A stretch of DNA of 63,807 nt, filler included, from Hausera hauseri (lineage: Eukaryota): the NCBI GenBank assembly GCA_046269625.1. It is 12 parts of 12 records of this genome, joined end to end, with 100 filler letters (N's around TTAATTAATTAA, not from the genome) between each part and the next. Parts side by side here need not be neighbours in the genome. Positions count along the whole stretch, not along the records: positions 23,226 to 27,950 come from JBJURY010460245.1; 11 more parts are not named here. The stretch is one strand, 5' to 3'. The number at the start of each line of letters is the position of its first letter. Within the stretch, counting starts at the first letter, position 1. Shown here piece after piece: positions 3,518 to 45,769 of the stretch. Under the pieces are notes generated by a model. It was given only the letters and a program-made list of their open reading frames with translations. It was not told the origin of the DNA and did not search any database. The position numbers were made by a program, and so were the translations under genes.

Positions 3518-4054
3518 ATGTTCAAGAAACAATATCAAACCTACCAGAAAGAAGGAGAAATTCCCGACTTAGATAAAGAAACCATCATGGACTGGACGTT
3601 AGTCTCCGTGAATTATGGCCCTAGAAAAAGTTCAATCAACAACCAGCAAAAAGAATTATACGGTTACCTATATTCCGACCAAAACGGACTAGTACTCGAA
3701 CAAATCCAAATTGTACCCAAAGTCGATTTAGATCGTGACGAAAGCACAAACAAAGATGAAGGCACCTGACCAGTATGTAGCGAAGATATCTAGCAAGGAT
3801 GTGTTAAATTGGACAACCAAGAATGCAGGCACAGATATTGTCGTACATGCTTAGAAACATGGACGATGGATCATGGGAAGACGACGTGTTTAGTATACCG
3901 AGCAGAGGCTAATGGCTTAAAATATTTTTCAAACGGTGAACGCAACAGATCTGTTCATATTCCAAATCAACCCAGTACTAGTTATGCTTTAGAGGCGAAC
4001 ACAGTTGACGACAGTAGTCTCCGGAGTAGACTGGAACTGCTGCGCCGACGATAA
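3518..4054 (+). pseudogene. Accessory ORF with a decayed C3HC4 RING finger
   Basis: In-frame read-through gives T*PVCSEDI*QGCVKLDNQECRHRYCRTCLETWTMDHGKTTCLVYR; the first Cys is now TGA and the last is TAC. Confidence 0.7.
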
Positions 4055-9154: not shown

Positions 9155-9435
9155 TAATTGCGAACGGGAAATCCCTTAGAGTCTCGAACTAACTGCAAAC
9201 GACTCGATGCAAAAGATTGTCTTAGTAGAGTATAGTATGTAGCACTGTTCTCACGTATTGTTATTGGTAAAATTGTAAATGTGAATTCCACCAAAGTCAC
9301 TTCCCAGGCTCCCTGGCGTAAGCAGAGCGGCTCGTCCAACGCCACTGTAAACCGTTCAGCAGTATTGTTGTTGTTGCCTTTGTTGTCATGTTGTGATAAT
9401 CTGTTACTATCAAGTACCGAATAAATGCTCACCAT
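9155..9435 (-). pseudogene. Maverick/Polinton minor capsid (penton-like) N-terminus
   Basis: SVLDSN...NTAERFTVALDEPLCLRQGAWEVTLVEFTF fits the Polinton penton start LpSn...nt..F.v.L...l.L.g.WeV.L.E; lies next to the integrase. Confidence 0.7.
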
Positions 9436-10466
9436 TTAATCTGTGATACAAATATCCAACTCTGTGTAATGTATGTATGAACCTTTGCCACGTGAACGTA
9501 GAATTTCCTGAATAAGATACACATAAGGTTTTCCCGGTAGTACTTGCAGTTCCTGTTCGTAAAATTTGTCACGTATTTGGTCACCATTTTCATCTTCTAA
9601 AACGTACATAACAGGTTTTTGTTTTGTATTGATTGATGAAATTCGGAAAATCTCATTACTCCAGTTCTGATTGAAATTCTTAATGAATGGTGTCGTACTC
9701 AGTTTTGAAATATGTACATAGTTCCCTATTTTTTACTTGGGCCGTTTAATTGGTCGTCGTTGTACTCGGTTGTGATAAAACCACATGTTGGTAACTTCAA
9801 ACGGCCGTAATCCACTGATTCTACGATGTGTCGAATGATTGTATGCATGAATAATATGGGTAATAGATCTACACAGCGTTTACTGCCCTGCTTTGTAAAG
9901 AATTTGTTTATTCAGCCGCGTAATGTTCGATTAAATCGTTCAGCGAGTGCAGCCTTCTATTGTGAAAACAGAGTAGTGGTTTATACCGAACCTGTTCAAG
10001 GCCGATGCGACATGCGAGTTGTAGAATCCTTTACCCAAATCCGTTTGTAAATGCTTCGATGGGGTTGTTGTTGTTGTTGTGGCTGGTTTATTACTTTGTA
10101 AGCAGCGTTGGCAATCTCTTTACCGGATTTAGATTTTGCGACAATTGCACGTACAAAATGAATAAAAATATCAATACATGTAATCACGTACCGTTAATGC
10201 TGGCGTACGGAATTATTTCCGTCAGATCCATTTGGCAAAAATTATTTACGCCTGCAGCACGGTATGCATGAGTTGGGAACCATTTTCCTACCGGTTTGTT
10301 TGAGCTGTATGACAACTGCTTCCCCAGCCAACGTTGGATTTGTCGCCGACTCTGCCGTACAGTCTTTGCCAGTTTGTCGACGCCAATATACTCGACGAGA
10401 TGACGCGGGTCAAACCGCACATTGCCCATTGTCGGTTTTGTCGATGGTGTCGGTTTTTCTTGCATT
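9436..10466 (-). pseudogene. Maverick/Polinton retroviral-like integrase
   Basis: FDPRH..YIGVDKL...WLGKQLSY; QMDL; ITCIDIF; KAALAERFNRTL; GNYVHISK...NWSNEIFRI...YVLEDENGDQIRDKFYEQELQ; many stops and frameshifts. Confidence 0.9.
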
Positions 10467-10574
10467 ATAACAATCTGAATGAAACAATAATGTAATTTTC
10501 GGTAAACTGGGACAAAAAGATGAAAGCCATGTACCAATATCGCTAAATCATCATATACTTACCGTCATTGTTTA

Positions 10575-10915
10575 TACTAAACTGTTTCAGCAATGAGTCT
10601 ACCCACTAAAGACGTGGCAACCAGTCGAACTGCACTAAGAAAGCCGTCATCTTGCTGGTACATGACCTATGCTTCAGTCGCTTGCTACGAGAGGTTAGCA
10701 AGGCTAGTGAGACCTTTGCGATACTTCAGTAAAATCCGCTTTCTACTACCAATGTCAACGTGACCCACAACGATATTGTATATAATTTCCATTAAATCGT
10801 CCATTACAAATTGCAGGAATGATCGTAGCACGATTCGTTTATGTCTCGATAGTGCTTTAAACAAAGCAAAAATGTACGGTTGACTACGTTTGAAACGCAT
10901 GTTTCGTCCGTGCAT
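10575..10915 (-). pseudogene. Conserved small Polinton protein (PW / protein X-like)
   Basis: Helical ORF LMEIIYNIVVGHV...KYRKGLTSLA; read-through gives MYQQDDGFLSAV, similar to the Q.GGFL motif; lies between ATPase and integrase. Confidence 0.55.
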
Positions 10916-11132
10916 ATTGATGCACTGACGACGTAGTTGTTTATAATCGTTGCCATTTTGTGGATAATTTGCGTCTCACTGCTGACGTTGTTCGATTAAT
11001 TGCTTAACTGTGACAATACGTTTTGCTGTACTTGATACACGTCTCTTTTTTACACCTGTTTGGTTGGTTCACGTTTATCAATTGTTTTTCGGAAATTTTG
11101 CTTTTGGTTTCACTCTTACTATCATGTCGATT

Positions 11133-11766
11133 TTAGAATTTGTTTATAGACATGTACTCCTTTTGGATTGAAAATATCTGTTTGTACACGCATGTTATCT
11201 TGACATTGTTGTGTAAAGTCAATAAATTGATATCTATGCGCCTTGTTCGTAGCATCATGATATGCATTCATCAAGTAGGCTCGGTTGTGAAAAAATGCTT
11301 GTCATGCAACATAATCAATGATAGTCTGATCACAGGAATTTTTGAACAACACCAACTAGTGTACGTTTAAATTTCTTGTTCGATGCTATCCGCATGATGG
11401 AACATGTTTTGCGAATTGAAAATAATCGTCGTGTCGTGCAATCTTCGTGAACAGTTTGTTGAAGTCGGTTTGTTTAGTTGCTTTCTGAAATAAATCGTCA
11501 ATGACGATAAGGTCACCGTTGCGTAATCTCTCAGACCAGTTTTTATAAAACCCATCAATTACCGTTATCAATTTTAATTTACAAAATTCCTGATGTATCA
11601 GACCGGACTCACCATCATCACCAACACCCTGATGTCAGTAAATGTGATTGTACCGGGGTGAATGAAACATGCCACGGTAGTTCTGCAATATTTTACACAC
11701 AAAGTGTGTTTTTTCACTTCAACTGGGGCCTACAATCTGGACAATTGCATCATTCTGCAGCTTCAT
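11133..11766 (-). pseudogene. Maverick/Polinton A32-like DNA-packaging ATPase
   Basis: Walker A IVGPS*SEKT, Walker B LIVIDDL, LFTKIARH, LVLFKN. Confidence 0.85.
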
Positions 11767-11853
11767 CTAAATAATACAACCTTTTCTCACATAATTTGTT
11801 TATAATCATGTTACGCACATATAAATAGCCATAATATAAACACTGTTTCCATA

Positions 11854-12279
11854 ATGTTAGCTAATATCAACTATCGCGGACATGTTACTGAGAGTGACAT
11901 TAACACATTACTTTTTAATCAATGGAAGCCGAGGCATTATGTCCTCAAGTGTCCACCGGATTTTACATGCATAATATTTTAATCGGGAAAGTGCCTTATT
12001 ATGGGTTGTCGCAAACCAATCACAGCAGACAACAGTAAACTACTGCCATTCAGAATTGTCATTAACCAAATCCAATAAATAACAGAAAAGACTCATTTAG
12101 GCTGCCCATCAATCAGTCTGTACAAATTATCAACGGCCACTGAATGTACGTATGAACCCGAACTGTTTTCTGCACTTAGACTGACATTATTTCTCCCACT
12201 TTGTGTCAATATGTTTAGCAGTGAAAAAATTGTTGTACTCCGTATTCGGACAATGTACTATAAACCGAATATTAATTAA
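11854..12279 (+). pseudogene. TATA-binding protein (TBP)-like gene inside the Maverick; intronless, two in-frame stops
   Basis: Single frame: MLANINYRG...CIIF*SGKCLIMGCRK...TYEPELFSALRLTLFLPLCVNMFSSEKIVVLRIR, matching both TBP repeats (LIFSSGKMVCTGAK and YEPELFPGL...LLIFVSGKVVLTG); absent from the ORF track because of the stops. Confidence 0.75.
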
Positions 12280-12738
12280 ATTAAAAACCACATAAATGTT
12301 TTACTGAATCAAAATAATGTACTCTGCACAACACCAGCAATCTATAAATACCATTCTCATGCTCATTCAGACATTACTGCCATGGAAGGCGACGATAAAA
12401 CGATTCTACTCAATGATGATAGTGGTTGTGAAAATAATGCAAGTTCAGATTGGTCGTGGTTGTTTGGCTACAAAAAGGATAATTCTAATGTCAAATTGCA
12501 GGGAACGAAAACAGAACCTGTCCAACAAATAGAAAAACCGTATGACAATTCTAATGTCGATTGTCTGGAGGACAATTATGATGTCGATTATCTAGAAACA
12601 AAAAAGGAACTTGCACAGAAATAAACAAAACCGATATTAAAAAGGCAAGTAGCAATGATTGAAATACGTAAATGAAAATCAAAACTGCCTCGCCAAACAC
12701 CGACACGTTTACCGAAACAAATTTTTCGCAAGTATGAA

Positions 12739-13095
12739 ATGCATTTTCTACAAATGCCCGTATTGATTTCATTGAATGATCCAATGTCTATGTGCTCACC
12801 CAAGTACCGCTATCGTGTAAAACGGCTTTTGAATAAAACTTTTTATAAACTTTCTGATGCTCTGCATCAATTAAACCTGAATTTAAAGTGGAACGAACCG
12901 ACCTTGAAAGAGCAATCTCTCGTTTTACCAGCCACAAAAACAAAACTGTTTTATTTTATCGATCGCGAAATGTCTAACGTGCCTGATAATGATTTGCAGT
13001 ACCAATTAAACATTGAATTGCAAGGATACAAGGAAAAGGACGGAATCAAAAGCACGATTTGGAGTGTAGTTGAAGCACGCTTTAATTATCAATAA
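12739..13095 (+). CDS. Maverick accessory protein of unknown function (possibly OB-fold/SSB-like)
   Basis: 118-aa ORF within the co-oriented accessory block; ends LNIELQGYKEKDGIKSTIWSV. Confidence 0.3.
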   Translation: MHFLQMPVLISLNDPMSMCSPKYRYRVKRLLNKTFYKLSDALHQLNLNLKWNEPTLKEQSLVLPATKTKLFYFIDREMSNVPDNDLQYQLNIELQGYKEKDGIKSTIWSVVEARFNYQ

Positions 13096-13197
13096 ATATT
13101 GTTGTTGTTTTTCTTCTTTTATTGTTGCTTTTTCTTTCATGATTCCAATTGACGAATATAAATATACGTGTAATTTGTTTGTTAGTATTAGATGATA

Positions 13198-15804: not shown

Positions 15805-16959
15805 TCAAAATTGCCGAGACTGTAACGTCCGATTAGACAGTGGACTCGATACTGAGGCGTTCAAATTAGACAAGGCTTTGTGATTTTCACAAACAGTGGA
15901 TTCCGTTTTACTGTTATGGTCGAATGGTAACGAATTCGCATTCTGACCAAATGACGTCACATCATTTGTTGCACTGTTTTCATTACTCCACGAATTCTCC
16001 ACAAATTCCATTCGACTGGTTTTGTTTGAATGGTGGCGATGTACTGAAATGTTGTGTCCTTCCATTTGCTCAACAACCTCCACGTTCGGGCTAACTTTAC
16101 TAACAGCAGTTTGTTCGATTTTATCGGCAGAATTGTCGTCCAACAATTTCGTGGATAATGCACATTCTTCATAATCTTTAATCAAACACGCTATATTCTC
16201 TAAAGCATCTTTGAACTCATCCTCCTCCATTCCTTCGCCGACATACCAATGAACGTAAGCTCTTTTTTGAAACAATATCTGAAACCGAAAAATGCTCTGT
16301 AACAGTGCATCAGTAATACAGGAATTGTTCGACAGAATGGAAACGATCTTGTCGGACTCACCAAAATGACTATCGTGAACGTGTATCGGTGACCTTTGAC
16401 ACAGCATTACTTTAACCCCAGTCGGACACCAGTCGACGAATGTTAGAGTTTCGTGAAATTTCAGTCGAGCTACGGTTGAACGAACGTCAACGGAGTTGAC
16501 ATTTCCTCGATACATCAAACAACAGGCTAACATTTTCCCACCGATGGGGTCACAACTCAACAGTTGTGATTTGCTCGTTAGAGCTTCTCGAGTTATGCAA
16601 AAGACGGAATTTGGCGAATGCATTTGCGTACTCGGACTATTGACCGGAGCCAAACTGCAAATGGGAAAATGCATTCGGGGATACGGTACGATGTTGTTGA
16701 GAATCTCTGTTGTTGATGAACTGTGATCACTATATCTAACGGATGATGTAAATACGTTAAAATATTGAGCCATTATTCGATTTATGTCGTTATAAGTCGG
16801 TTTAGCTTTCATCGGTGCTTCTGTAGCAATCCGAAACAATGATTCATTGTCAGCTAAAAATGTAACATCGGTTTCGTCAATTGTGTAGTGTTTGGTTAGA
16901 ACACTGTTGTATGGTTCAACTAATACTGGTGAAGAAGGGAATGATGGGTGGATGGACAA
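15805..16959 (-). CDS. Divergent alpha-tubulin, C-terminal two-thirds (5' part lost at the contig end), with a ~118-aa tail extension
   Basis: VEPYNSVL, DNESL, PTYNDINR, VPYPRMHFP, MLACCLMYRG, FVDWCPTG, KRAYVHWYVGEGMEE, KDYEE; uninterrupted ORF. Confidence 0.92.
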   Translation of the reverse strand: MSIHPSFPSSPVLVEPYNSVLTKHYTIDETDVTFLADNESLFRIATEAPMKAKPTYNDINRIMAQYFNVFTSSVRYSDHSSSTTEILNNIVPYPRMHFPICSLAPVNSPSTQMHSPNSVFCITREALTSKSQLLSCDPIGGKMLACCLMYRGNVNSVDVRSTVARLKFHETLTFVDWCPTGVKVMLCQRSPIHVHDSHFGESDKIVSILSNNSCITDALLQSIFRFQILFQKRAYVHWYVGEGMEEDEFKDALENIACLIKDYEECALSTKLLDDNSADKIEQTAVSKVSPNVEVVEQMEGHNISVHRHHSNKTSRMEFVENSWSNENSATNDVTSFGQNANSLPFDHNSKTESTVCENHKALSNLNASVSSPLSNRTLQSRQF

Positions 16960-17092: not shown

Positions 17093-17899
17093 GATCCGAA
17101 ATTAATTTGGTAGGCGTATAATGTTCTGATACATTTTCACGTATCCTCGAATTGGTTTCTGATTTGTCCATATATCTTTTCCCTGTGGTCTTATTGAACT
17201 TTAGTTCTTTAATTTTAATAAAATTACAATTTCTTCCAGAAGAAGGTTCCCAAATTATAACCGAGCTTCTAAAAGCGCAAGTTCCGTCTTGTAAATGACA
17301 TTTTTGATTCTCTGTATATAATTTGGTGACACTATGGAACATTACCTTCTGTGATAGCATTTCTGATTCGTAGAAATTCACAACCACCACGTTTGACTCT
17401 AATCCTTTTCCGTTATAGTACTCTGCTCAATTACAATATCCGCTATGCATATCTGGTCTTCCGGCTACTACTTTATATGCCCTGATTATTTTTTTGGCTG
17501 CATCTCCAATTGCATACTATCCCATTGTATTTTCCCAGTTTCCTTGGCTTGCTTGTATTGTTGGCGCTCTAAGTTCATCGGAATTATTGGAGTCGTTAGT
17601 TTGATTATAGATGAGTATCCATGAACCAATCCACAGTAATAAATGCTACGCGATCGTCACAGCATGCGTTCCATTCCATCTAGCGATATCAATTCTTGCT
17701 GCTGATAGAGGAAATAATTTTTCTCTTTTGTCTCCAACTTGTGTAGTCTAGCATCTTCGCATACTTCCAGATCCATTAAGGAATATCTCTGTCCTAGCTT
17801 AAACTTATCGCAGTCGTAGACGGTTACAGCGTCTATATGCTTAATTATCATCATCAAGGTGAGTAGGCTAATTAGCCAATTCGATTCATTTTCCGGCAT
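17093..17899 (-). pseudogene. Chuvirus-type (class III, gB-like) envelope glycoprotein, N-terminal ectodomain
   Basis: Signal peptide WLISLLTLMMIIKHIDA, then VTVYDC...YSLMDLEVC...LYQQ...RSIYYCGLVH...GYCN*AEY...NVVVV...CHLQDGTC...IIWEP...CNF, the Cys and motif order of chuvirus G and Anakin-type env. Confidence 0.7.
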
Positions 17900-18297
17900 C
17901 CAACGTCCGCCGTTGTCAAATTACGTAACATATCATCGAATTTATTACCGTTTCGCCTGTCTTCTTCGCTGTCAAATAGTCTTGACCAATTTACTTTGTA
18001 GGGCAATCTTCTTGCTGATTTTCGTGCTAAGCTTACCGCTCTATTGATTTTATTTTCTCGATTGGGGTTTATTTTAATAGCTAGGTATAGTAATACTTTC
18101 CTCAATTTCTCATTGGTATTTTCTATCATGATCTTTTCTATTACTGCTTCGCCGGTCAAATTACTCTTCGATAGCTTAAAACGTAAGCTTCTCATCATTC
18201 TAGCTACGTTGAATATTATCTTTTCTCTTTCATCTAATATATCGCCTTGAAAGCTTGAATAATTTACAATTCGTATTAAATTCTTCATTAACCCGCT

Positions 18298-19038
18298 TCA
18301 TTCTTCATTGTTTGTACTGAGGGTCGAAATCGACATCTGTTTCAGTTCCTTAATTAGTTCTCCATTGTAATCGACTCCTTCTCGCGTCTTCCTAGGCCTA
18401 CCGACTGAACGTTTCGGCCTTTGCCCTTTTGTTGTTATTTCGCTGAGTGGTACTAAATTTATATCGTATTGTTCCTTATCTTCATCCATTTGTAAATACT
18501 CAAAATACATTGCAGCATCTCGGACTCCCATAATTTGTCCTACGCATTGCTCTTCCTTGGCCTTACGCGTGGTTTCCTCTTTTGTCTGTTCATTAGCTAT
18601 TGTTACTACTATGCGGTTTGTTTCGTCGGGGATAATCCCGACGTCTATTAATTGTTCTAGGTCGGCGAGTGTTCTACCTATAAAGTAGAATGTGTAATTT
18701 AGCTCGTTTGCTCCGCCATAGTTTAATAACCATTCTCTTACTTCTTTTACGTAGGAATATCTAGTTAGCTCGCATTCTTTTACATTTATCCATTCGGATG
18801 ACACCATTACTTTTATTGTTACCTTGGGTATAGCCCTTAAAATTTTATAGTATTTTCTTATAAAAATTTTCGGCACCGTACTACAAATCGCATTCTCACT
18901 AGATAATTTAGTTAATGTCGGAATAAGTTGTTTTAACTTACTTTCATTAATGTTTTCGTTAATTAGTTCAATAAAATCCTTTTCAGTTAGCGCTGATTCT
19001 AGTTCATCTCCACATTGAACCTCCTGTCCTGCGGGCAT
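18298..19038 (-). CDS. Accessory ORF with a ubiquitin-like domain (~18595-18828) and an AT-hook (~18384-18414)
   Basis: VTIKVMVSS...YVKEVREWL...FYFIGRTLADLEQLIDVGIIPDETNRIVVTI is ubiquitin-like (LIF.GK.LED..TL.DY.I); KRSVGRPRK is an AT-hook. Confidence 0.6.
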   Translation of the reverse strand: MPAGQEVQCGDELESALTEKDFIELINENINESKLKQLIPTLTKLSSENAICSTVPKIFIRKYYKILRAIPKVTIKVMVSSEWINVKECELTRYSYVKEVREWLLNYGGANELNYTFYFIGRTLADLEQLIDVGIIPDETNRIVVTIANEQTKEETTRKAKEEQCVGQIMGVRDAAMYFEYLQMDEDKEQYDINLVPLSEITTKGQRPKRSVGRPRKTREGVDYNGELIKELKQMSISTLSTNNEE

Positions 19039-19603
19039 GTTTCTATGTCATTTAGTCGTACTGGCGACATAGGTTTTACGGCCAGTATTGCGTCGAAGTA
19101 TGCATCCAATTCCGGTCTATTTCCGACATTTGGGAGTCCAGCGCCTACTAAAGCTACACTTGTTCTTTGCGCGTTTTCTCGAATTTCTTTCAATTTTGGC
19201 TGTATTTTCTTTATCTGCGTAGTTCGAAAACCCACTCCATTTCCACAGGCATATTGAATCCCTTTTGGTAATAATCTGTTAATTCAATAATTACATCTTT
19301 TCGATATCTTTGTACGAATTCTCACTTATTTTTGATTTCTGATTCTGTAAAAGCATATTTGTTTCGGTAAATTTTGAGTTCTTTTGCTAGTTCATCCAGC
19401 CTCTTTGCTCTTTGTTTTGTTCTGATACATGTTTCCTCCACTTGATGTAATTTGGGCATCAATTGCCTCATCTTCTCATCGTTAATTTCTGCCATTTCTA
19501 CCAATTTCGTTTATGACTTTTGAGTCTGGATCCAATGCATCCGATAATTTCTTTACGAACTTAGATTCTTGAAAACTAAGATGTTGGTCATTTCCTACCG
19601 TTA

Positions 19604-20866
19604 TCAGTCGGTATGGAAGTTCTGATCTGATCCGGTCATCCATTCTTGAGGTTTATGCAGAAATTTTATCCTGTCCGTTAAAGTTGCACGTTGTTCCGGG
19701 CAAATATCTAGGGTTTTGATGTCTTGGACAGAGATTTCGTTAATAGGTTTATCTGTTAAATGTTGAACTCCTTCTAGTCGGACCGTTCTTAATATTGGGT
19801 AAAAATTGCAAGTCATATTCCGCTTTTGGGTAAAATTCGTCTCTTCGACCATTTTATAGATTTCTTCCAGTATTGTTGCTTCTTGTTTCTTCTTCATAAA
19901 ATTAAGTTGTAATGCTTCAAAACGCGTTCGGGTGCATATTTCTGCGAGTATTGTATCTAAATTACGTGCGCTTTCTTCTAATTGCTTCTTTACAGAAGGC
20001 TGGCTCTCTGGGAATTCTTCCTTACGGCTTTCCATTAATTTGCTTAGTCGCATCATTAATTCGGACCATTTCGACAGTTGATTGGCGATTATTGGCTTCG
20101 CAATTATAGCCTTATCTAGCATCTTATATGCATCTTTTAACTCATCGTCCGGCCCTCTTAGGAAATCCATAATCCGACCGACATAACTAAACGCATACTT
20201 ATATGCGTCCCATTCTACAATACAAGCCTTTACATATTGAGTCTCTTGGTGATTTGGGGACATAATTCGGTTCCTTAAGCTACAAATCTGTGCTCGCATG
20301 TTATTTTCTATCTTAATTCCATTTTCTAGGTTTGTATATTGTTTTGGCGTAGCTAATGCGATTTTTATCATCTCCGTCAAGGGAAGAATGTCTATCGGGT
20401 CTATACCCAATATTTCCAAATCAATATTACTTCGATGGTTAACCGGTTTTTCCCTAAGCTGATTAATCATTGCGCAACGAATTTCATCCATCGTACGTTT
20501 TAAATTTCGGACCACTCTCTTCAATTTTGGGCTTGTTTCTAAGGTTGACAATAGCATTTGCGCTTTAGTGACTTTTGCCTCGACACTATCTTTATTTTTG
20601 CTCCATCCTTCTGAAAATTCTACTACGCTTTTAATCCATGATTCTAATTCATGCTTCCATTTTAACAATGTTTCAGGTAATACCTCTTCAGGTTGTCTCA
20701 AGTCGATCGCTTCGGCAAGTTTTCCTTCACTACATAGTTTCAAACTTTTATATAACCTCTCAGCATACTGCTGTTCTTTTAAAGATATATCTACTTGTTC
20801 GCTAATCTCCATAAGCCTTTCTAAATTTTGCTGCAGTATTTCTGGATCGTGGGATCTAATTCGCAT
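19604..20866 (-). CDS. Helical/coiled-coil accessory protein of the giant element, unknown function
   Basis: 420-aa open frame, E/K/L-rich heptad-like composition, collinear with gag. Confidence 0.5.
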   Translation of the reverse strand: MRIRSHDPEILQQNLERLMEISEQVDISLKEQQYAERLYKSLKLCSEGKLAEAIDLRQPEEVLPETLLKWKHELESWIKSVVEFSEGWSKNKDSVEAKVTKAQMLLSTLETSPKLKRVVRNLKRTMDEIRCAMINQLREKPVNHRSNIDLEILGIDPIDILPLTEMIKIALATPKQYTNLENGIKIENNMRAQICSLRNRIMSPNHQETQYVKACIVEWDAYKYAFSYVGRIMDFLRGPDDELKDAYKMLDKAIIAKPIIANQLSKWSELMMRLSKLMESRKEEFPESQPSVKKQLEESARNLDTILAEICTRTRFEALQLNFMKKKQEATILEEIYKMVEETNFTQKRNMTCNFYPILRTVRLEGVQHLTDKPINEISVQDIKTLDICPEQRATLTDRIKFLHKPQEWMTGSDQNFHTD

Positions 20867-21599
20867 TTTCTTTAATTCATCGGCGTTTTTCCGTGAACGT
20901 CGGACTTCCCATTTCTTTGGATCGAAATCATCAATATTTGCCTTTCTTCCTCACTAGTGGAAAGTGAGCAAATTTCGTTAATTTCACTTATTAGATTTAT
21001 AGGTTCCCTTACCTCGGTAGGTGAAAACGAATCAATTTCTGGTGTAACTAGGTTATGCTTTGCGTCGCTTTCTATAACGATATCCGTATTTTTCGTTTCT
21101 TCTATTTTTTCCCTAGTTATTTTGGAGCGTGAACGACTTCTACGTTTCGTCTTTGGAGAAGGGCTATGGCCTTTATTTTTTGTAATTTTAAGTATTAATA
21201 GTTCCATAAATTCTTTTTCTGCTGTATCGTCATCAGTAGACTTATCTACCTTTTTAACCATGAACTCAGGCTCTCCCTCTAAGTCGACTGCTGTCGATGT
21301 GCCCGGTTTCTCAGACGGTTTATTACTGGTCGGAACACAATTTTTCCGTGTCATATCACTTCGCTTTGGTGCTATTGCATGTTCTTATTCAGTTTCTAAC
21401 TGTACCAGACCACGATATACTTCTAATAGTCTCAGCTTGTCTCCATATTCTTTTCTATCCATCAGAATTTGTGGGTTAATAGTTTCAGGCTGAGCATCTA
21501 GAAATCTTCGTAAGTTTTGTATGTCGATGATAGTACCTGTGTCTCCGCGAACACCATACTTCGCTTCTAAATTTTCATTACTTCTGACCATACTAGTCT

Positions 21600-22833
21600 T
21601 GTTTGGCTCAGTAAATGAAACGCTACGTGGGTTTGGACATGACCTTAAAATATGTCCTTCCTTACCGCAAGTAAAACAGACTAAATTTTCATTTTTTCCG
21701 ATTCTCTGTTGACCGTCTTCATTTACAGGTGAATTAGGCCGATTCGAACTTCAATTGTACTGATTCTGTGCGCTAATTGCACTTCTTCGATTATCATCAT
21801 CACGATTCCAGTACTTTGAACCTTTGCAATTTCCCCTATTCTATCCCAGTTAAAATCCGATCTATTTATATTTTGTTCATTAGTGTAGTTATTGCCTCGG
21901 CTATTTCTGTAACTGCTATTATTATTTCTACTTCCATAATTTTTGTTACCCGTAAATTGTCTGTCGTCTCTTCCACGATTGGCGTTCCGATTTCTGTCGT
22001 TGCAATCACTTCGATCATTATTTTTATCGTTTCTATCATTGTGTCTGGCATATATGTCAAGTGCCATTTCTAAGTCCTGAGCTAATTTGTAAAGTTTCTT
22101 TAAAATTTTCAGGTCTAGCCAAAATCAATTGTTTAACAAAATATCGTGACCAGATACCATAAATTAATTGAGTCGTCATCATGACATCTAGATTTGGCAG
22201 TGTTGCCTTTTCTGCGGCATCGCGTTCCGCATCTGTTTTGGCTCTAGCTACATTGGCTGTACGCAGTGTGTTTATGTAACTATTAGCCAGTTTCGTCAAC
22301 GCAAATGCGAATTAGGTTACTGATTTACCCTTTTGTTGTATTCTATTCTGAAATGCCATAAGCTTCTGCTGCGGCGTTATTGTCGGTAATAATTTACGGC
22401 TTTGTGCTCATACCAGGGAGGACCAAGATTTCTTCTTATCGTTTGTGAGCTCACTATAAGAGTCAGCGGTTAAGTTTTTCAAATACAACGACAAGCGTTT
22501 AATCATTTCTTCGGGAGTAAGACTAACACCTTGTGCGTGCAATTTATAAGTTCTCAAAAATTTATTAAGCCCGTCCGGGTCACCATCGTATGCCGGCAGG
22601 TTCAGAGAATCACAAGTAAAGATGTCCAGTTTCTGCGCTACTGGTGGGCTATCTGCTGCCATATTAGTTGCGTAATTTATCTCTAAATTTGGTTTATTTA
22701 TTTTGTGCTTCACACGTAGAATTTTAAATGGCTTATTTTGCTCGACGACGTCTAATTTGATTCTATTTTTTGAATTCGAACGTTTATCTACTTTTTGCGT
22801 ATCTCTATATATGTTTCGACGTGCTTCACGCAT
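21600..22833 (-). pseudogene. gag: Gag (capsid, N/R-rich linker, CCHC zinc knuckle)
   Basis: LPAYDGDPDGLNKFL...LSLYLK...AFQNRIQQKGKSV; knuckle VCFTCGKEGHILRSCP at 21637-21678. Confidence 0.85.
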
Positions 22834-23040
22834 AGGTGAATTATCGTTTAATACACGGTTTGCTTTTGACTTATCAATGCTTGTTCTCGATTAAAATTTG
22901 CGTTACTTATCCCGTTCAATAAACTTATATAGCCAATTTGATTTAGTTTCAACTATATCGAATTATTTGGTGTGAATGGCGCTGTTCGCCAATATATAAT
23001 TATTTAACTCTCAAAAGTAAGTCTAGAGAGGTACAAACTG

Positions 23041-23225: not shown

Positions 23226-23809
23226 ACCTCTTCGGGTTTTTCTTCATCATCACTTACTGGGTTAAAATCACATTTTCTCAGTCTTCCTCCCTTTTTCTTA
23301 GTGCCTATTTCCATAGTGATTTGGTAAGTATTTCCTGTAAGTAATCCATAATCTACAACATAATCATTATCGACGGCTGTTCTACCGTAAACATCTGTTT
23401 TCGCTATTATATTAGTCTCAAGGTCTAATTCGTCCAATACTTTTCTTCGGAGATCCGTAAATTTGGTGAACATTCCTGCTGTGACTTCAATTACTTGTTC
23501 TCGTTTGTTAGTTTTGATTTCTATATTTATAATATATGGTTGCTTTCTTCTATGTTTCCGTCTTAAGTCTCTTCCTAAGGTCTTTAATGATTTTCTTGCA
23601 GCTAGGAAACAAAACATCTCATCCCTTGTCAGTGGTATAAGTAATGATGCGCATTCTATCCGGTTGTTTAATGATAGTGTTTCATATTGTCTCAAAGCAT
23701 CCCATACTTCATTGGGTGCTGAGTCGATCAATTGTAATTTAGCCTTAATTGTTTCTACTACTAACTCTGAATTTTCACCATATACTATGGATCCTGGTGG
23801 AATATTCAT
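23226..23809 (-). CDS. Accessory ORF with a ubiquitin-like domain (~23300-23540)
   Basis: INIEIKTNKREQVIEV...KFTDLRRKVLDEL...VYGRTAVDNDYVVDYGLLTGNTYQITM. Confidence 0.6.
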
Positions 23810-23905: not shown

Positions 23906-24916
23906 CTATATCTCTTCGTCTGTTATCTGATGTTCTTTCTTAGATGTACTTGGTTGCATGGAATCCCAGATATTTTCAAATAACGTTGGTCGTTGTGGTG
24001 GAACCGTTGGTTGGATGAATGGTGCGACTAATCTATCATCATATGGGTCTATCCATTCCCCGGTTGGTCTAATTCTGACAAGTTCTTGCGAATATTTATC
24101 AGCATCCATATCTGGATATCTTTGAGTTATTGGTTCGATTACCGGGATTGGTCTTGCTTCTTCAGTTTTCTCTAATTCTTTTATCGCTGGAAAAGCTATT
24201 TGTAACGTCTTTCGGCTTTCTATTATCCATGGTACATTATATTCCACTCGTGTCGTTTTCAGGTATTCATCTAAACATCTTTGTGCCATAATTTCCGAGT
24301 TATGACCATTATATAGGTCTAAGCATTTGTAGTTCCTATTTGTCTGTTCCAGATCATAGATAGCGGTTAGATTTTCGGGGTTTATATTCAATGTATTCAA
24401 CAATTCTGGTAACTGACGACCAATAATCGTTTTACCTGGTAAATATCTATCCATAAATTCGCTTATTGATTCTTGTCGTTGCGGATTGAATCGTCTACTA
24501 TATTCAGTATACTTAGTAGTATCCGGTAGGTTTGGGTATACATGAATATTAAGGATTGTTTTTCCTTCCAAATTTTTGGCAGTGACTTGAGTAAGTCCTT
24601 TTTGGTCTCCTTTAGTTATACATCTACCAGTAAGAATTATTTCACTGTCTTGCATTACAGGCTCATCCACAGCTAATATTGGTATATCCTTAAGCAATTG
24701 TATTAAATATACCGCGCAGTTATCCAAAGGTTGAATCTGATAATCTCCTTCATAAGGATAGTTAGGAAGTATCTTAGTTTCTTTAGAAACTATTACTGTT
24801 TTATTATTAATTTGCAATCGAGCTTCTCCTTGGTTAGTAATTATAGCACAAGGTGGATCCTTTCTTTTGATTCGAATATCAGTCCTTTTACGGTAAATCT
24901 TATCGATACCTCCCAT
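23906..24916 (-). CDS. Accessory ORF: cupin-like domain plus dead REX4-type DEDDh domain (~24255-24645)
   Basis: IITNQGEARLQI; IILTGRC...LTQVTAKNLEGKTILNIHVYP...YLPGKTIIGRQL...IYDL...GHNSEIMAQRCLDEY (compare gHsSveDA.a.m.LY). Confidence 0.6.
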   Translation of the reverse strand: MGGIDKIYRKRTDIRIKRKDPPCAIITNQGEARLQINNKTVIVSKETKILPNYPYEGDYQIQPLDNCAVYLIQLLKDIPILAVDEPVMQDSEIILTGRCITKGDQKGLTQVTAKNLEGKTILNIHVYPNLPDTTKYTEYSRRFNPQRQESISEFMDRYLPGKTIIGRQLPELLNTLNINPENLTAIYDLEQTNRNYKCLDLYNGHNSEIMAQRCLDEYLKTTRVEYNVPWIIESRKTLQIAFPAIKELEKTEEARPIPVIEPITQRYPDMDADKYSQELVRIRPTGEWIDPYDDRLVAPFIQPTVPPQRPTLFENIWDSMQPSTSKKEHQITDEEI

Positions 24917-25949
24917 ACAAATCGATCCTTGTTCAGCTATATCCGCGAACTCTATTCTTTCAGTTTTCTTGTCCTCAAACAGTTTATCTCATTTCTGAAC
25001 AATGCTTATGTCCATGCGCTGCAACACTGCCTCTGGAATTAAGATAGTATTGCATGTCATTTCACGTTGGAGATATCCATCGTTCTTATATAAAGGCCTA
25101 CTTGGAAAAATGAAATATAAAGGTCCTTGACGGTTAAGTTTAACCTGGTACTCTTGTTGTAGATTATTCAATTGTTGTAACAATGTATCTTCTCTTTTCC
25201 AATGGTCATTTGGTAAATTAAAATTCTGATCTACACTAAACGTACCAAAAATATCGGATTCCTTCAATTGTATTTCTTTAAACAACCATGGCAATTCTAC
25301 TCCAATTATAAGTTTTCCACAGAGTATTTGTCTAAGATGTTCATAGCATTTTTTTTCTCCCTATACACATCTTCCAATTCAATTATCAGATCCCCCTCGA
25401 TATTCTCTATTCTTATTTGGTTAATTTTTGATTTCTGTTTTTGTTCGTTAGTTTTATCTACTGCTACAAAGGTTGAAAGTAAATTTTTTATTTCTTTAGT
25501 TTCTGGCCATAACATGTATGGAAGTGTATTTCTTTGGATATCTGGCACTTTTCGTTCTGCCTGTTCCAATTGTTTTCTAGTTATGAAGGGTTTTTCCAGG
25601 ATAGTATTATTGGTTGGCAGTTCAGGTGTTAGTTGATGAGATTCCGTTACAGATTTTGTCATTAGCAAACCCGTAAAAGCTGATTTAGTTTGTTCATTAA
25701 AAGTTACTGAGCGGCGAGGCGAAGTGTTTCTTTCGTCGCTATTGCTTTTTCTGTTATCCGACAAATTTCCTTTTTCTCTCGTAGGACTACTATAAGGTGG
25801 TATTGCCGAATCCAGTTTTCTCTTATTGTAATTCCTAGAATGTTCTGGCGTCGAATTCCTATTATACCTTTATGGAGAAACACTCCTATTTGATGATATT
25901 TCGTTTCGTTTGAAATTGTAGTCCGACGATCGAGTATATCTATCATTAT

Positions 25950-27850
25950 TACCATTTAATCCTGGGGAAGGAGTTCGGTTTCCGCCTCTTGAAGGGTATG
26001 GACTAGGATTTCTATTATATCTATCCGATTCTTTTCGAGTCGGAGTGTAGTCGCGTCTTGTATCGTAATTTCCCGATCTTGAATCATTATAATCAGTTCG
26101 ATTATCGTTTCTAGGACTATGTCTTTCTCTACTATCACCCCGTCGATTATCTCTTTCTCTCTTATCACTTCTATTAAAATTATTATATCTTTCACGACTA
26201 TCCTGTCTTCTAAACCTTTCTCAACTCTCACTTCGCCTATCATTAGGATAGTTAGATCTTACTTGTTCCCGTCGATTATTTGGATATCTTGTTCGACTAT
26301 CGTCTCGTAGATATCGTGCTTGATTATCATCCCGTGGATATCGTATTCGACTATCATCTCGTTTATAGTATGAATTTCTATCCTCATAACGCCCAAAATT
26401 TCGGTCGTTGCTATATTTTTCTCTACTAGGGAATCGACTTTTATTATCATTTCTGTCTCTCGAATCACCTCGTGTTCTATCATATCTATTATCGTTTCGC
26501 TGTCGATCATCATAGTTTCCCCTATTTTGTTGATACTGCATATCTCTTTGGTTGCTATTATAATTTCTGGATGCTTGATTAAAACTTCTTCTTTCCGGGG
26601 TATTGCTTCGTTGAAATGTGTTGTTATCTGATCGGTTGGGACTTTGACTTCTCAATGAGTCCCTCCAAGGTGAATTACTACGATTTGGTACATAAGGTCT
26701 TACTAGTAATGGCGTCGTAGCTACTGCTGCCATTTGCATTTGGTTAGTCCATAAAGGTGTTTCATCTATTCGCGTTGCCATTTTTCTAGTATAGTCTATT
26801 AATTCATTAATATTGTTGGCAGTATGAAACTTAACTCCTTCTCTTAAGGGTGGTAAAAGTCCTAGTACAAATTGTTTCATTATCATGGCACTGAAAGCAT
26901 TTGCGTTATGACCAAAATATCTAGTCATTGCCGTTTTAAATCTATTAATGTAGATCAACACTTCTTCATTGGGCTTCTGCTTACAATTTTGGAATTTCAG
27001 ATGTCGATTCTCTTGTATATTAACCTGTTGATTTTGTAGAATTCTTTCTCGGTGTTGTAACCAAGTTTCGTTTACTCGTGGGGGTAGACGCGTTATTGCC
27101 ATCCTTAAATCATTATTCACATGTACTTGTAGGAGTGATATTTTCTTCGCGTCACTCCAATGCATGGCAGTGGCCAGAGAATCATATTTATCTAAGAAAT
27201 CTTCCAGGTCCGATACTCGTCCTTCATACGGTTGAAGGCGGGGAAGTGTTTGATATTTCTCTTCTCTTCATTGCAGTCATAGATAATATTATTATTGTTA
27301 GAATCACAGTTATATCTGTTTCGAGGAGCCGATGGCTCTCGATTATCCCTTTGTGGGTCCATGTTGTCGCTATCGATGTCAGAAATTTCACAAGACACTG
27401 AGCTTACATCTATTGAAAATTCAGATGTATGTACCTTTTCTTGACGTCGGGTTATTGCTTCTTCTGTCCTTGCTTGCTCAAGGCGTTCATTCAATCGGTC
27501 TATATCTCGTATCAACGTCTCTATTTAATTTCTAGTACAATTATTTCCTTCTTGAATCTGTTTCTGTTCGTTTACTATAACTGTTACGTGGTTCTGCATA
27601 TCATTTATCCTTTGTCTTACTTGTCTTTCATTGTTATCTATTTGTTCTCTGTTTCTATATAATGTAGCTATATTATCGATAGTTTGTTGTCGAATATCAC
27701 GCATTTGTCTAGAATAGATGCTAACTTCTTGTGCGAGTTGACCAGTTTTCTCATCCAATTCATTTAAACCCATACTATTATCATTCACTTTTTGCTCTAT
27801 TTGGGTGATTCTTCCTTCAACTTCGTCTAATCTTATACCATTATTCATAA
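25950..27850 (-). pseudogene. gag: Gag with an N-terminal coiled coil and a long Arg/Asp/Asn-rich C-terminus lacking CCHC
   Basis: HWSDAKKISLL...FQNCKQKPNEEVLIYINRF...KQFVLGLLPPLR, typical retrotransposon capsid motifs (Q..NE.V..Y..RF, F..GL). Confidence 0.85.
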
Positions 27851-28050: not shown

Positions 28051-28888
28051 CAAAAACCATCGGATGCGCTGCCACAGCGGCAAACCGTCAGGTATGGGTG
28101 GAAAAATCAAAAACACTGACAATGTGTGGACCGCTATACTTTGACTTTTTTGATCATCTGAAATACCTATTACCCGGTGTTAAAGCTATGATTTGGCTCA
28201 AACGAAGCGACAATGTCTTTTGTTTGAAAATCACCGTTGAAAATCTCAAACCCATACTAAAAATAACCGAGGCACGATTATACGTACGTCGAGTAAAAGT
28301 AGAACCGTCTGTGCTCATGGGACACCGATTGGGCTTGGAAACGAAAATGCCTATTACCCGATACAACGCACAGAACTCATCTTTTACACCATACCAAAAG
28401 GTTTAACTACGTTTTACAAAGGTGCATTGTTTGGTGACATGCGATTACCGAAATTTGTGCTTGTTACTTTTCAAACGACTGTTCAACAAACGAGCAGTTA
28501 TACCACCGATTCGGAAACGTATACCTACAGCAATGTGAATTACATCAGTTTGGGTCGGAATGCGGATTTCGTTGAGACGTACAAACAAGATTTTTAGTCT
28601 AATGATTTTGTTTGCACATATATGCAATCTATTGTGCACAATATGGGTTTGTTGAACAAAAATGTCACCAATGGTATATAGATGGATTTATTCAAATCTA
28701 CCTACCCATTCTTCACGTTTGTCTTGGATCCGGATTATGACGTTCAAAAGATTCAACTACTTCAGCAGGGAAACCTACGACTGGAGGTTCACTTTGCTAA
28801 AGCGTTGGAGCAATCTACCTTGATGTACATTTACGGTGTATTTGATGCCGAGGTTGAAATAACGAAAAACGGAATCGTCATTGTATAA
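28051..28888 (+). pseudogene. Maverick/Polinton major capsid protein (double jelly-roll), C-terminal part
   Basis: GPLYFDFF..KYLLPGV...LKITEARLYVRRVKV...RLPKFVLVTF...GNLRLEVHFAKAL...YGVFDAEVEI. Confidence 0.88.
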
Positions 28889-28974
28889 ATAAAATCCGCT
28901 GTGTCTCACCTTTTCTTCTTCGTCATACAATGAAGTAATTTACTATTATTATTATACTTAAATCACATTTTCAC

Positions 28975-29410
28975 ATTCAGCTCTACCGAGCTCAGTCATT
29001 ACTAAAAACTGCTATTGTGCGTGAAATTTTGTTGTGTTTCCACTGGACAGTGTGCCGCGTGATTTACAACAATCTGGCGGCTTTATTTTCAATACACAAA
29101 CTTCATCGTCGCCGGGCGAACATTGGATTGCTGTGTACGTCCATCCGGCCAACGTCGTCAGAGTATTCGATCTGCTCGGATTTTACTATCCGTCATCTTT
29201 AGTTTCTCAAATTGAACGGCAATCATCATCATACCGTGTTGAATATAATCGAGTTTATTATCAACATCCAATGACTATACTACGTGGACATTATTGCTTA
29301 TTGTGGCTAATATTACAATCACTTTTGTGAAATATATATGTATTATTTCCTTGCTGTTGTTTTGTGTACCAAAGAGCGAACAAATCATGAGAAATAATGA
29401 TGTAACAATC
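28975..29410 (+). pseudogene. Adenain-like cysteine protease (Maverick)
   Basis: FIFNTQTSSSPGEHWIAVY...FDLLG...YQHPMTILRGHYC (catalytic Cys of CG.yC changed to Arg). Confidence 0.88.
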
Positions 29411-37756: not shown

Positions 37757-39626
37757 TTATTCAAAGTGATATATGTACTCACCATCCTTTAACCATGCAT
37801 AAATGGAGTTTTTTTCTTTATCGGTGTCCGTATTTTTGATCGGCATCCAAATCGTTTTATTTTGTCTTACTGCCAAGAGTCCTGATAATGAGTGAGCACT
37901 CTCTTGGTTACAATGCTGGTAATAATTTGGGTAGGAATAACCACTTGACATCTAATTTCAGTAATATTCGAAGCTCTTTCGGGGTTCATCTCAATTGGTA
38001 AGTCTAAAATGTCTGAGAACTTTCTGTATGAGATGAGCAATTTCCTTTCTCCGAATAACTTGGTATATTGTGCTGCAATCAACCTGTTTCCGATGGACTC
38101 CCAATCAACAATTTGTTTATGGCGGATTCCTAACTGCAACGAAGCGCTTTTCTCATCTATTATCTCATCTAGTACTATTGGATCAATGAAACCATTTCCC
38201 ATAACCATCAGAAGTATTCCGTTAACGCAAACTTTGTCCACCTTGGAGTCCGTGAGTGAACGTAGTAAATTTTTCATTAGGTCGTTGCTTTTTACTGGAT
38301 CAGTTTGAGTGGAGACATTCGTAGAATTAGCACTGCTCCATTTGCGTTTTGTGGCTGTTTTGGAAGATATTTTATCTTCGTCGTCAAACATTGGTTCTAA
38401 TACTTCGCAATCCATTACTTCAAACTCCTCTTCCTGTAGCTGTTATTACCACTTTAGCTACATTTTCTTTCGTCACTGTAGCCTGTGTATCGTATTTCCA
38501 TTGAATTCCGACCATATACTCTCTCTTGCGATTTAATAGATCTCCGAAGTCCACTATGTTATTATGGAGATCTGGAGGGATCTATTCATAAGTCTTGGTC
38601 AATTTCTTATGGGCTTCCATTGCAAGTTGTAATCGTCTTTTTGTAGTACTGGGAAACCATGGTAATGTCAAGGATTCTATCATCTGACTTAGTGTCTTGA
38701 TACGAGTGCCTATGGTATACTCAGCACAGTTTAGGGAATCAAAAACAGCGCAAGTTCTGTCTACTGGAATACTTAGGGCCTTGAAAGTCTTGTGTGCCTC
38801 CAATGCTACTATTTTGTATCCCAGGATATATTTCTCGAATTTTTTTGAACCATATGGGAATCTTTTACTTTTCTATTTGTTCCCATTTTATTACGTGTCG
38901 TATACTGTTTAAATTATGATAGTTTGATTAAAGATAATTTCTCAATTTTTCTGCAATGATTAGTTCGATCGGTAGTGGAACTTATAGTCCGTTTGACTTG
39001 TGGACGTATGCAAAAGACGCCGCTACATATCTAGAACTACTGGATTTACTGGTATATAGAATGTTCGTTTCATCCAATAATTCTTCATCCATAGGTTCCA
39101 CCTTGTATTTTATTGTTAACAAGGATGGAATTTTCTTTTCCATTCTAAAAATTTCTACCATTCCAATATTGATTATCCCTTTAGCGATGAATCGAATATG
39201 TTTTGAATCTATTGGATAATTAATTTGGCAAGATTCTTGACCGACAACAGTTTCTAGTGAATTTTTCGGCCTTTTTCTCTTCTAAATATCACCATGATTT
39301 TTCCAATGGTGACATGTATGGTCATTCCAATGTTGTTTACAGTCCACTGCGGTAGTTTAAGTGTGCTTTTCGAATTGAATATCTTGAAAGGGAAAATTTC
39401 ACGGTTTCGTTGCTCTCCGTATTTAAGTATGTTAGGTTTTTTGGTGATTTTGCTTATTCAATCCATTGAGTTGTCTAGACATGCTATTATCTTGTCATAA
39501 AAGGAACAGGTCATATTCCTTTCTGCAGTGCTGAGTCTTCGTATCCATTTATCTACGTCTCTCTTGTCTATCGAAACTGTTTCATGTCGTTTGAAGATGT
39601 CTGTTCCTCCAAATTTCGAGTTAGAA
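37757..39626 (-). pseudogene. Accessory region of a giant element: cupin-like domain plus two tandem dead DEDDh-like domains
   Basis: IHVTIGKIMVIF; RYVAASFAYVH...PIELIIAE...KYILGYKIVALEAHKTFKALSIP...VFDS (38582-39035); second copy VLDEII...LGIRHKQIVD...LFGERKLLISYRKFSDILDLP...ITEIR aligns by eye with the contig-1 domain. Confidence 0.5.
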
Positions 39627-40190: not shown

Positions 40191-40465
40191 CTCTCTCTCT
40201 CTCGATCAAGAATATGTAAGAATGTCAAGAGCCACTCAGCCCCTGGTGAATAGCAAGCAGCCATCAGTGACCTATGCTTTGACAATCAATTGTTAAGGCT
40301 CCCCCATAGCTCTGCGTACGGCCGTACGCGTGTCCATACGCACGTACTGTACGTAAACAGTTCACCTGCACAGCTCAGCGTACGTTCTCACGTACATTCT
40401 CGCGTTTTCGCTCCTATTCTTGACGTCATTTCCTTGAGTTCGTCATTTCCGCTATTGTTTCAGCC

Positions 40466-40968
40466 ATGGCGTCAACAGATGATGAAGAAGAAGAGATTGT
40501 TTGCCTCTTATTATTAGCTTCAAGAAAACGTAGAAGGTGGCACGTTAGGCCATTAAACGAGGCCAGGGATGAAGAAGGAGAATTTAATACGTTGGTTAAG
40601 GACATGAAAATGATGGACAGCGAGAAGCATTTCGAATATTTTCGAATGGATTCGATCAAGTTTGATGAGCTAGTTGGGCGGCTAGCCCCGTTGCTTCTAC
40701 ACCAGGGCAGCCATCGCTCTCCTGTCAGCACTGCACAAAGAGTGGCAGTCACGCTGCGCATCTTTGCGACTGGCTGCTCGGAACAGAGTGTTGCTGCCAG
40801 CTATCGCCTGGGCTCATCAACTGTGTCAGGAATAGTGTCGGAGGTGAGTCATGGAATAAACAAATGAAAAGTTTTGCTGTGATATTATTGATGACTACTA
40901 GTGAAGTCAGCAGCAGCGGATGAACTAGTAGTTTATATAAATGCATATAAATATATATATTATATATA

Positions 40969-41010
<42 letters not shown>

Positions 41011-42617: not shown

Positions 42618-43052
42618 TTACCTATCAATAAATTGATAACAAAATTAATTTGTTCATCATTTTGTTTGTACAATAATGAACATTTGCATTTCAGTCAATT
42701 TCTTTGTGATTTTAAAACAAACAATATACACATATTTAAATGGTGGAAATTTTTATTATCTACAGCTAAATTCCAATGTTCACCAAAATAACACACAATA
42801 CACATTTCAGAGTGAATTGATCCTTAAAAACATTTCTAAAAAATAACACTTCTAAAAAATAACACTTTAAAAAAAAATAACACTTAAAAAAATAAAAATA
42901 AAAACACGTTTGAAATCATGGAAGAGGAAATCCCTACTGTGTGATGTAAAACACTACATTTCTTTTTTTTTTTTTTAAATGTTGAACTATTTCAATAAAT
43001 GTAACAGCAAACCTGTACAGGTCATAAGCTTATGACAATACATAACACATTC

Positions 43053-45768: not shown

Positions 45769-45769
45769 A

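Follow-up and report, generated by a model that had tools for sequence, protein, structure and literature searches.

Copy 2 of three copies of a two-domain module represents a family that we consider, with a probability only slightly better than even (about 0.55), to be a catalytically dead β-helix plus DEDDh module of Burro-like Gypsy retroelements: it would be held under purifying selection and would act as a likely RNA-binding part of the Gag polyprotein, not as a nuclease. At least two of the three stretches are copies of the module; they have lost the residues needed for cutting, yet one is still conserved by selection, and it therefore likely binds RNA rather than cuts it. We regard the module as real and apparently undescribed, an accessory in a type of element that is already known, with one pseudo-enzyme branch under selection.

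Three copies of the module in the window

The window, the whole stretch of 63,807 nucleotides that was analysed, consists of 12 eukaryotic contigs of 4–8 kb each, from a host that is probably an animal, with N spacers between them; a Pfam-type domain scan finds transposon pieces in abundance across it. Copy 1 lies on contig 1 (1–4983), copy 2 on contig 5 (23226–27950) and copy 3 on contig 7 (34918–39626). All six motifs by which a preliminary description had recognized the module were found, on these three different contigs: 1872–1907 (+) and 2382–2417 (+), 24809–24844 (−) and 24410–24445 (−), and 39284–39319 (−) and 38795–38830 (−). BLASTN and BLASTP detect no similarity among the three copies at the cut-offs used. 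Direct pairwise alignment gives weak scores, and not every pair beats its shuffles: z is 5.7 for copies 2 and 3, the latter with hand-placed X joins (0 of 300 shuffles as high), 2.4 for copies 1 and 2 (8 of 300) and 0.4 for copies 1 and 3 (89 of 300).

Profiles of the β domain and of the DEDDh domain, trained on 43 relatives with no window sequence included, were matched against 72 frames of the window, 72 reversed controls and five proteins; none of the 72 reversed controls matched either profile. Copy 1 matches both (β, iE 1.5e-4; DEDDh, iE 3e-14), copy 2 matches the DEDDh profile only (iE 1.6e-7), and copy 3 matches the β profile only (iE 5e-4). The β part of copy 2 scores 0.3 bits against the β profile, with 70 of 200 shuffles as high, and the DEDDh-like part of copy 3, read across two frameshifts with X, scores −0.6 bits against the DEDDh profile, a value reached by 60 of 200 shuffles. 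The same two-domain order, said to occur three times, thus stands for both domains of copy 1, for the DEDDh half of copy 2 and for the β half of copy 3. A Pfam scan has no match on any of the three, and a search for homologs of near length found nothing.

In copy 1, the β-helix domain (IPN.LK ... HLADG; 1674–2010 (+), the end being approximate) is followed by the dead DEDDh domain (2169–2657 (+); ISG20L2 E 0.003), which has in-frame stops within it and just ahead of it; a RING-HC finger (3770–3890 (+); zf-C3HC4 E 1.1e-5) ends the ORF. The intact relatives P0006 and P0007 match the β profile at 4.5e-8 and 2.6e-8, respectively, and P0006 (870 aa, 42% identity to copy 1) encodes the module and a C-terminal RING finger in a single ORF. 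Copy 3 comprises a decayed β-helix domain (39266–39529 (−); 8.0 bits against 5.1 for the best shuffle) and a candidate dead DEDDh domain (38585–39032 (−)) spread over three frames.

Relatives and their catalytic state

A profile of copies 1 and 2 with relatives was searched against 1.84 billion proteins and returned 30 at E≤0.001: three are training relatives, 14 are full-length proteins in which the same β domain precedes a DEDDh domain with catalytic residues present, and the rest are fragments, two dead relatives, multi-repeat or cellular REX4-like proteins, and one unrelated repeat protein. With a DNA pattern built on non-catalytic conserved columns we reached 46 metagenome loci, which come mainly from three datasets and are not independent samples; the module is encoded in 37 of them, and the other nine were dropped. 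This pattern had no matches in viral contigs, and a related-locus search gave no metagenome or viral-contig matches. Setting aside near-copies and pieces of <290 aa reduced 57 relatives to 43 non-redundant ones.

The residues D-E-[D/E]-H-D are intact in 37 of these 43, with E at ExoII in 22; three of the remaining six have ExoI intact but are truncated or misaligned beyond it, and three are dead. The DNA pattern favours conserved members, so that 37 of 43 is not a census; as judged from these residues, the count shows that the usual state of the module is catalytically intact. The earlier proposal of an ancestral inactivation does not survive this result: on present alignments the loss is a derived state, inherited from a common ancestor by a sub-lineage at most.

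As previously claimed, the ExoI D-x-E is missing from copies 1 and 2 and from the stretch of copy 3 that aligns there. More broadly, ExoI D-x-E, ExoII D and ExoIII H-x4-D are absent from copies 1 and 2 and P0004–P0007 (as far as these reach), and partly from P0010. The majority of members form ORFs of their own that keep D-E-[D/E]-H-D and are placed beside env-PR-RT-RH-IN or gag. Dead domains are found in three arrangements: in tandem with a live paralogue, joined to a RING finger as in the copy 1 type, or, in the copy 2 type, as two in-frame units that lie between Gag and Env. As a separate observation, P0012, P0021, P0029 and P0030 (730–800 aa) have about four tandem REX4-like domains, mostly without catalytic residues, and several of them have a signal-peptide-like start.

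Folds of the two domains

An AlphaFold model of the live family member P0009, based on 17 sequences, has a mean pLDDT of 88.8. Its C-terminal domain matches ISG20 (Z 20.0, rmsd 2.3), and SDN1 is also among the top structural matches of P0009 (Z 15.1). The N-terminal domain (residues 1–129) matches ALKBH6 (Z 9.5, rmsd 3.9, 128 aligned), OsALKBH1 (Z 9.3) and, by Foldseek, cupins (E about 1e-5); these matches point to a double-stranded β-helix of AlkB/cupin-like type. The AlkB motif consists of the H-x-D...H iron ligands and the 2OG arginine, and neither is seen in the β domains of the family. Across 31 β domains only P35 and H73 are invariant; no Pfam 2OG or cupin domain matches the β domains of these 31 members, the β-domain profile has no significant match among PDB sequences, and one β-domain His is conserved in 41 of 43 relatives. 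With one invariant Pro, one His and no Pfam name, an active dioxygenase is unlikely.

The AF2 model of copy 2 has a confident DEDDh core (pLDDT 77–95), whose best match is ISG20 (Z 10.1, rmsd 2.8, 108 aligned); because the model was built on the family alignment, this match is not independent of the profile result. The β part (strands at pLDDT 45–67) and the C-terminus (DEDDh helices at pLDDT under 60) are unreliable. Profiles and structure matches therefore bear out the REX4/ISG20-like fold for copies 1 and 2 and for the family, the corresponding part of copy 3 not being significant. The cupin-like domain of the preliminary description fares less uniformly: the family has a cupin-superfamily β-helix, according to the P0009 model, but established homology does not reach copy 2.

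The module as an accessory of Burro-like elements

We scanned 25 flanking ORFs of the loci for domains. In L012 and L020, Env and then PR-RT-RH-IN are encoded in one ORF of >2,700 aa, and the module is a separate ORF downstream; in L005, L014 and L021 the pol part is followed by the module; in L013 the module lies upstream of a gag ORF. Near module loci there are TRAF/MATH, RING, ankyrin and ubiquitin domains, and RT domains are present in five loci. Burro-like giant Gypsy elements are marked by LTRs and a length near 30 kb; the contigs in the window are 4–5 kb long, and the longest module-bearing loci span 11–14 kb.

This organization resembles that of the planarian Burro elements (Burro/GYPSM1), which are described as having a giant ORF with Gag first, then ubiquitin-like and BCL2-like domains and a mononegavirus-type Env in frame before PR-RT-RH-IN, with ankyrin and MATH/TRAF cargo and with accessory domains that lie in the polyprotein or have ORFs of their own (PMC6431247). 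There are also differences: the text of that description names no DEDDh or AlkB/cupin domain, and it gives Burro 2–3 CCHC knuckles, whereas none was found in the Gag lineage of copy 2 (PMC6431247). Judged from gene content and order, the module is an accessory of Burro-like giant Gypsy retroelements (gag...env-PR-RT-RH-IN), Burro itself being compared by description only; the gag-to-env-to-pol layout is assembled from P0004, L012 and L020, no single record having all three parts. We write ‘Burro-like’, not ‘Burro’, because the copy 2 Gag lineage is without CCHC, no match supporting Bcl-2 was found, and the comparison with Burro is one of layout. The CCHC knuckle is present in L013 and on window contig 4, unlike P0005.

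The contigs had been called unrelated; instead, copy 2 is shown to belong to a Burro-like Gypsy element, and copy 1 probably does too, given its module, its RING fusion and an upstream membrane-segment-like stretch. Copy 3 may likewise belong to such an element, the one pointer being its β domain. A pol-less gag-env element was considered and rejected, being contradicted by the env-before-pol loci and the Burro layout; Troyka, which is described as having no env, was rejected as a match. The main text of an errantivirus survey makes no mention of exonuclease, DEDD, Bcl or ubiquitin (PMC13524379).

Several further features of these elements were noted. Contig 4 holds a second Burro-like fragment (17093–22890 (−)) with a gag-like ORF and CCHC knuckle (E 6e-6), about 900 codons of unassigned ORFs, a stretch that by eye looks ubiquitin-like, and a Monjiviricetes-type env (E 3e-6); no DEDDh module match was found in it. 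The polyproteins L020:3-8897 and L012:1-8271 contain extra protease-like copies and, after the integrase, repeated β-rich ectodomains and membrane segments with no Pfam name. Complete TRAF-like ORFs (RING, zinc finger, MATH) and a RING ORF lie directly upstream of live modules (L003:3140-4342 and L045:4186-7882), and coiled-coil-like ORFs adjoin the module at L012:8444-9106, L031:1457-2431, L010:1753-2328 and L044:421-975.

Copy 2 within a Gag-to-Env polyprotein

The ‘uninterrupted 336-aa ORF’ of copy 2 is not a gene, but a stop-bounded fragment of a Gag-to-Env polyprotein whose frame is open in relatives. The in-frame stop upstream of it (24989–24991 (−)) reflects decay of the window copy, the frame being open in P0004 and P0005, as does the in-frame stop that ends it (23906–23908 (−)), where P0004 is open. 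Window copy 2 is thus a decayed insertion. Reading along the minus strand, the polyprotein begins with a Gag capsid-like region (26221–27267 (−); Retrotrans_gag match at 26224–27267, E 4.8e-4, below the curated cut-off; 54% identity to P0005 residues 347–996), behind which the sequence is of low complexity and rich in Arg, Ser and Asp (25870–26220 (−)). The uninterrupted relative P0005 has no zf-CCHC match at E≤0.1 that would indicate a CCHC knuckle; in its 1339 aa, Retrotrans_gag (E 7.6e-4, under the curated cut-off), an RS-rich region and the module follow one another in one frame.

Within copy 2, a β-strand domain (24660–24985 (−)), at the position of the family’s β-helix and with a β-profile match that is not significant, is followed by the dead DEDDh domain (24263–24646 (−)). 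Its four acidic positions are T, R, L and M, and the ExoIII His is retained; ExoI and ExoII were read from the alignment, and ExoIII was placed by eye from its H-x4-D...Y spacing. This His, together with two nearby Cys, is common to copy 2 and P0004, and could mean that the domain now uses a different active or metal site, a switch that has been proposed for Maelstrom (PMC2628886). We think such a switch highly unlikely: the His/Cys set is found in two sequences only, in a region that is modelled with low confidence, and it is not present in copy 1, P0006 or the tandem-dead copies.

Upstream of copy 2 we also observed a second, more degenerate dead DEDDh-like unit (approximately 25180–25530 (−)), absent from the preliminary description, with a frameshift near 25330–25360. 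It matches the DEDDh profile at iE 0.037 in the window, 0.0011 in P0004 and 0.0044 in P0005, and hhalign aligns it to the downstream unit at E 8e-5 (probability 61%).

The same polyprotein includes a probable ubiquitin-like domain (23285–23540 (−); 85% identity to P0004), which has no direct Pfam or PDB match and aligns with the Pfam-ubiquitin ORF of L039 (z 4.9; 1 of 300 shuffles as high). Contig 5 terminates at 23226, ahead of env and pol. The continuation is seen in P0004 (1963 aa), in which the RS-rich region, the module, the ubiquitin-like domain and a Monjiviricetes-type fusion glycoprotein (PF24664 E 2e-63) lie in one ORF. Before Env, a helical stretch of P0004 (residues 1202–1325) has a weak death-domain match (E 1.1) and aligns weakly with the matching region of L012 (z 3.2). 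By eye it contains what we take to be a BH2-like motif, suggestive of Bcl-2; no Pfam, PDB or Atlas support was found for Bcl-2 in P0004.

Purifying selection on dead domains

The copy 2 family is highly repeated: 21,054 contigs of run X1 aligned to contig 5. In this run only, contig-depth-weighted variants were taken over 366 bases of the dead core at a share of at least 22%, giving 35; six of these, at ≥90% (three synonymous), were excluded because they are mostly specific to the window copy. Among the 29 segregating variants left, 24 are synonymous, against 22–32% expected (p<1e-7; pN/pS 0.06–0.10). No variant at ≥22% share is a non-synonymous change at ExoI, ExoII or ExoIII of copy 2; young copies retaining the DEDDh residues are thus not seen in the copy 2 family at that share. 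The claim that the inactive state is selected accordingly holds for the copy 2 family, to which these figures apply.

Could the three copies be independently decayed pseudogene remnants, their residues lost by neutral decay? Stops or frameshifts occur in all three window copies, and the DEDDh part of copy 3 is not significant. However, the same replacements are found in uninterrupted P0004, P0005 and P0006 (in P0006 the catalytic positions are replaced as in copy 1), and family-wide variation is synonymous. As an account of all three, neutral decay is therefore barely credible, and it is contradicted for copies 1 and 2; it may apply to copy 3.

A dead paralogue lies directly upstream of a live one in five loci (L005, L006, L019, L021 and L039). 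For the least saturated tandem-dead pair, dN/dS is 0.165 (CI 0.09–0.25, 202 codons) versus 0.082 for live neighbours; dS is saturated in most locus pairs, including other tandem-dead pairs. It was also noted that in L005, L019 and L039 a short ORF with a ubiquitin-like domain at its end comes after the dead–live pair.

The adjoining of dead and live paralogues raises the idea that dead domains are folded spacers or protein–protein scaffolds, for example to regulate the live paralogue or to keep protease sites apart, and that nucleic acids play no part in what they do. Purifying selection by itself tells us no more than that the sequence counts, and dead domains have no basic bias: net charge per 100 residues is −1.2 to +5.4 in dead domains (−1.2 in copy 2) versus 0.0 ± 2.5 in live ones, so that the dead are not more basic. 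Nevertheless, we consider a scaffold improbable, since a pN/pS of 0.06–0.10 is stronger than spacing seems to need: copy 2 is 69% identical to P0004 in the dead DEDDh domain and 63% in the β part, and its two linkers are 38% identical.

Origin of the loss

A tree was built from 52 DEDDh domains, with one short row and the two upstream units omitted. On this tree three changes are needed to explain the dead state, and dead domains form a single clade in 0% of bootstrap trees. Even so, AU tests do not reject one origin of the six copy-1/copy-2 type rows (p 0.24), nor that of ten dead rows without copy 3 and outgroups (p 0.57), where the constrained tree is slightly better. Branches are very long. 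The copy 2 family and the tandem-dead paralogues both have Arg or Lys where ExoI has its Glu, and they group together with 95/84 support; this grouping may be real or may reflect long-branch pull.

Proposed function

We hypothesize that the live form is a 3′–5′ RNA exonuclease, with the non-catalytic β-helix as a lid that helps to hold or read the substrate; it would serve the element by trimming its RNA or by removing defence-triggering RNA. Once inside the Gag polyprotein, a copy would be produced at the level of Gag and would enter the particle, in which an active RNase would be a danger to the element’s genome. The Gag-fused copy might then have shed its metal-binding acids and kept its fold, so as to hold or shield element RNA. 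That the Gag-fused dead form binds and shields RNA is suggested by its expected travel with Gag, by the harm that an active RNase would do, and by a Gag without zinc knuckles. The charge of the dead domains, no more basic than that of live ones, speaks against this reading, as do the β domain of copy 2, for which homology is not established, and its poorly modelled C-terminal DEDDh helices. Packaging into particles cannot be the general cause of inactivation, because the tandem-dead and RING-fused arrangements are not Gag-fused.

A bolder version, which we offer tentatively and judge possible but distinctly short of probable, is that giant retroelements of animals that have an envelope encode an RNA-defence-suppressing 3′–5′ exonuclease of their own, with a disarmed AlkB-type reader; its duplicates would become pseudo-nucleases, one of which, fused twice into a knuckle-less Gag, would be a new nucleocapsid or RNA shield.

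The main rival, much less likely than RNA binding, is that dead domains counter the RNA defence of the host, as decoys (a role already raised in the preliminary description) or as adaptors: they would occupy small RNAs or the partners of host DEDD proteins, and the RING form would send a bound host factor to ubiquitination. This reading fits the RING-HC fusion of the copy 1 type best; the ORFs nearby are of TRAF/MATH, RING and ubiquitin-like kinds, the live form has SDN1, a small-RNA nuclease, among its best structural matches, and BURRO1 and BURRO4 are reported to be repressed by planarian PIWI (PMC8532177). The SDN1 match, however, ranks below ISG20 and reflects the common fold, and a decoy leaves unexplained why most elements keep the active form.

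Relation to known systems

Exonucleases have been described as accessories of LTR retroelements before: the bdelloid Juno/Vesta LTR elements, and Athena/Terminon, are reported with a DnaQ-like 3′–5′ exonuclease in an accessory ORF (PMC5408684). These accessory exonucleases, including ORF3 of Juno/Vesta, however, are described as RNase D-like DEDDy with intact residues, often replacing env (PMC5408684), whereas the present module is a REX4/ISG20-like DEDDh domain fused to a β-helix, with env also present and with dead paralogues. Likewise, a 25-kb orchid Ty3/Gypsy element is described with an AlkB (2-ODD) ORF, an AlkB-type β-helix captured by a giant Gypsy, but that protein is enzymatically active, as an m6A demethylase, and stands close to the AlkB of plants (PMC9289625); the β domain described here has no Pfam match and no visible H-x-D...H and is fused to an exonuclease. 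ISG20, ISG20L2, REX4, Pan2 and SDN1 have the fold in common with the module (ISG20 at Z 20.0 for the live form and Z 10.1 for copy 2), and the catalytic set with its live members. The module differs from them in being element-encoded, in its G-x-D-L and G-x-R-D motifs, in its N-terminal β-helix, and in window copies without all four acids.

Dead DEDD folds for nucleic-acid binding are described in the host genes PML, as PXL (PMC13659232), and Maelstrom and EXD1, which are nucleic-acid-binding pseudo-exonucleases (PMC5408684). The arenavirus nucleoprotein ExoN is a DEDDh domain on a viral structural protein, but it is active and belongs to an RNA virus (PMC7968707). The likeness seen here to pseudo-exonucleases and to the arenavirus protein is one of fold. 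Among the literature matches listed, we found no description of Burro-like elements that have a β-helix joined to a DEDDh domain, whether live or dead; supplements or Repbase may annotate it.

According to its description, half of the Burro polyprotein has no annotation, and the cargo known from it relates to apoptosis and ubiquitin. The module would add an RNA-acting cargo that comes as a natural series: live stand-alone, dead tandem, dead RING fusion and dead Gag fusion. These are small, assayable proteins, suited to studying how retroelements with an envelope cope with the RNA defence of their host, and how a mobile element comes to have, and keeps, a pseudo-enzyme.

Other contents of the window

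Polinton/adintovirus-like pieces (polymerase-, capsid- and protease-like) were recognized by eye at 45031–48500 (+), 9155–13100 and 28051–29330, with no informative Pfam match. Other transposons include a hAT transposase in an uninterrupted 675-aa frame (51000–53057 (−)), a Harbinger-type DDE_Tnp_4 with a MADF ORF (40424–44039) and a mariner HTH remnant (62898–63371 (−)). At 15805–16959 (−) there is an intron-free, divergent alpha-tubulin-like ORF (Tubulin_C E 2e-31) with a long non-tubulin C-terminal tail.
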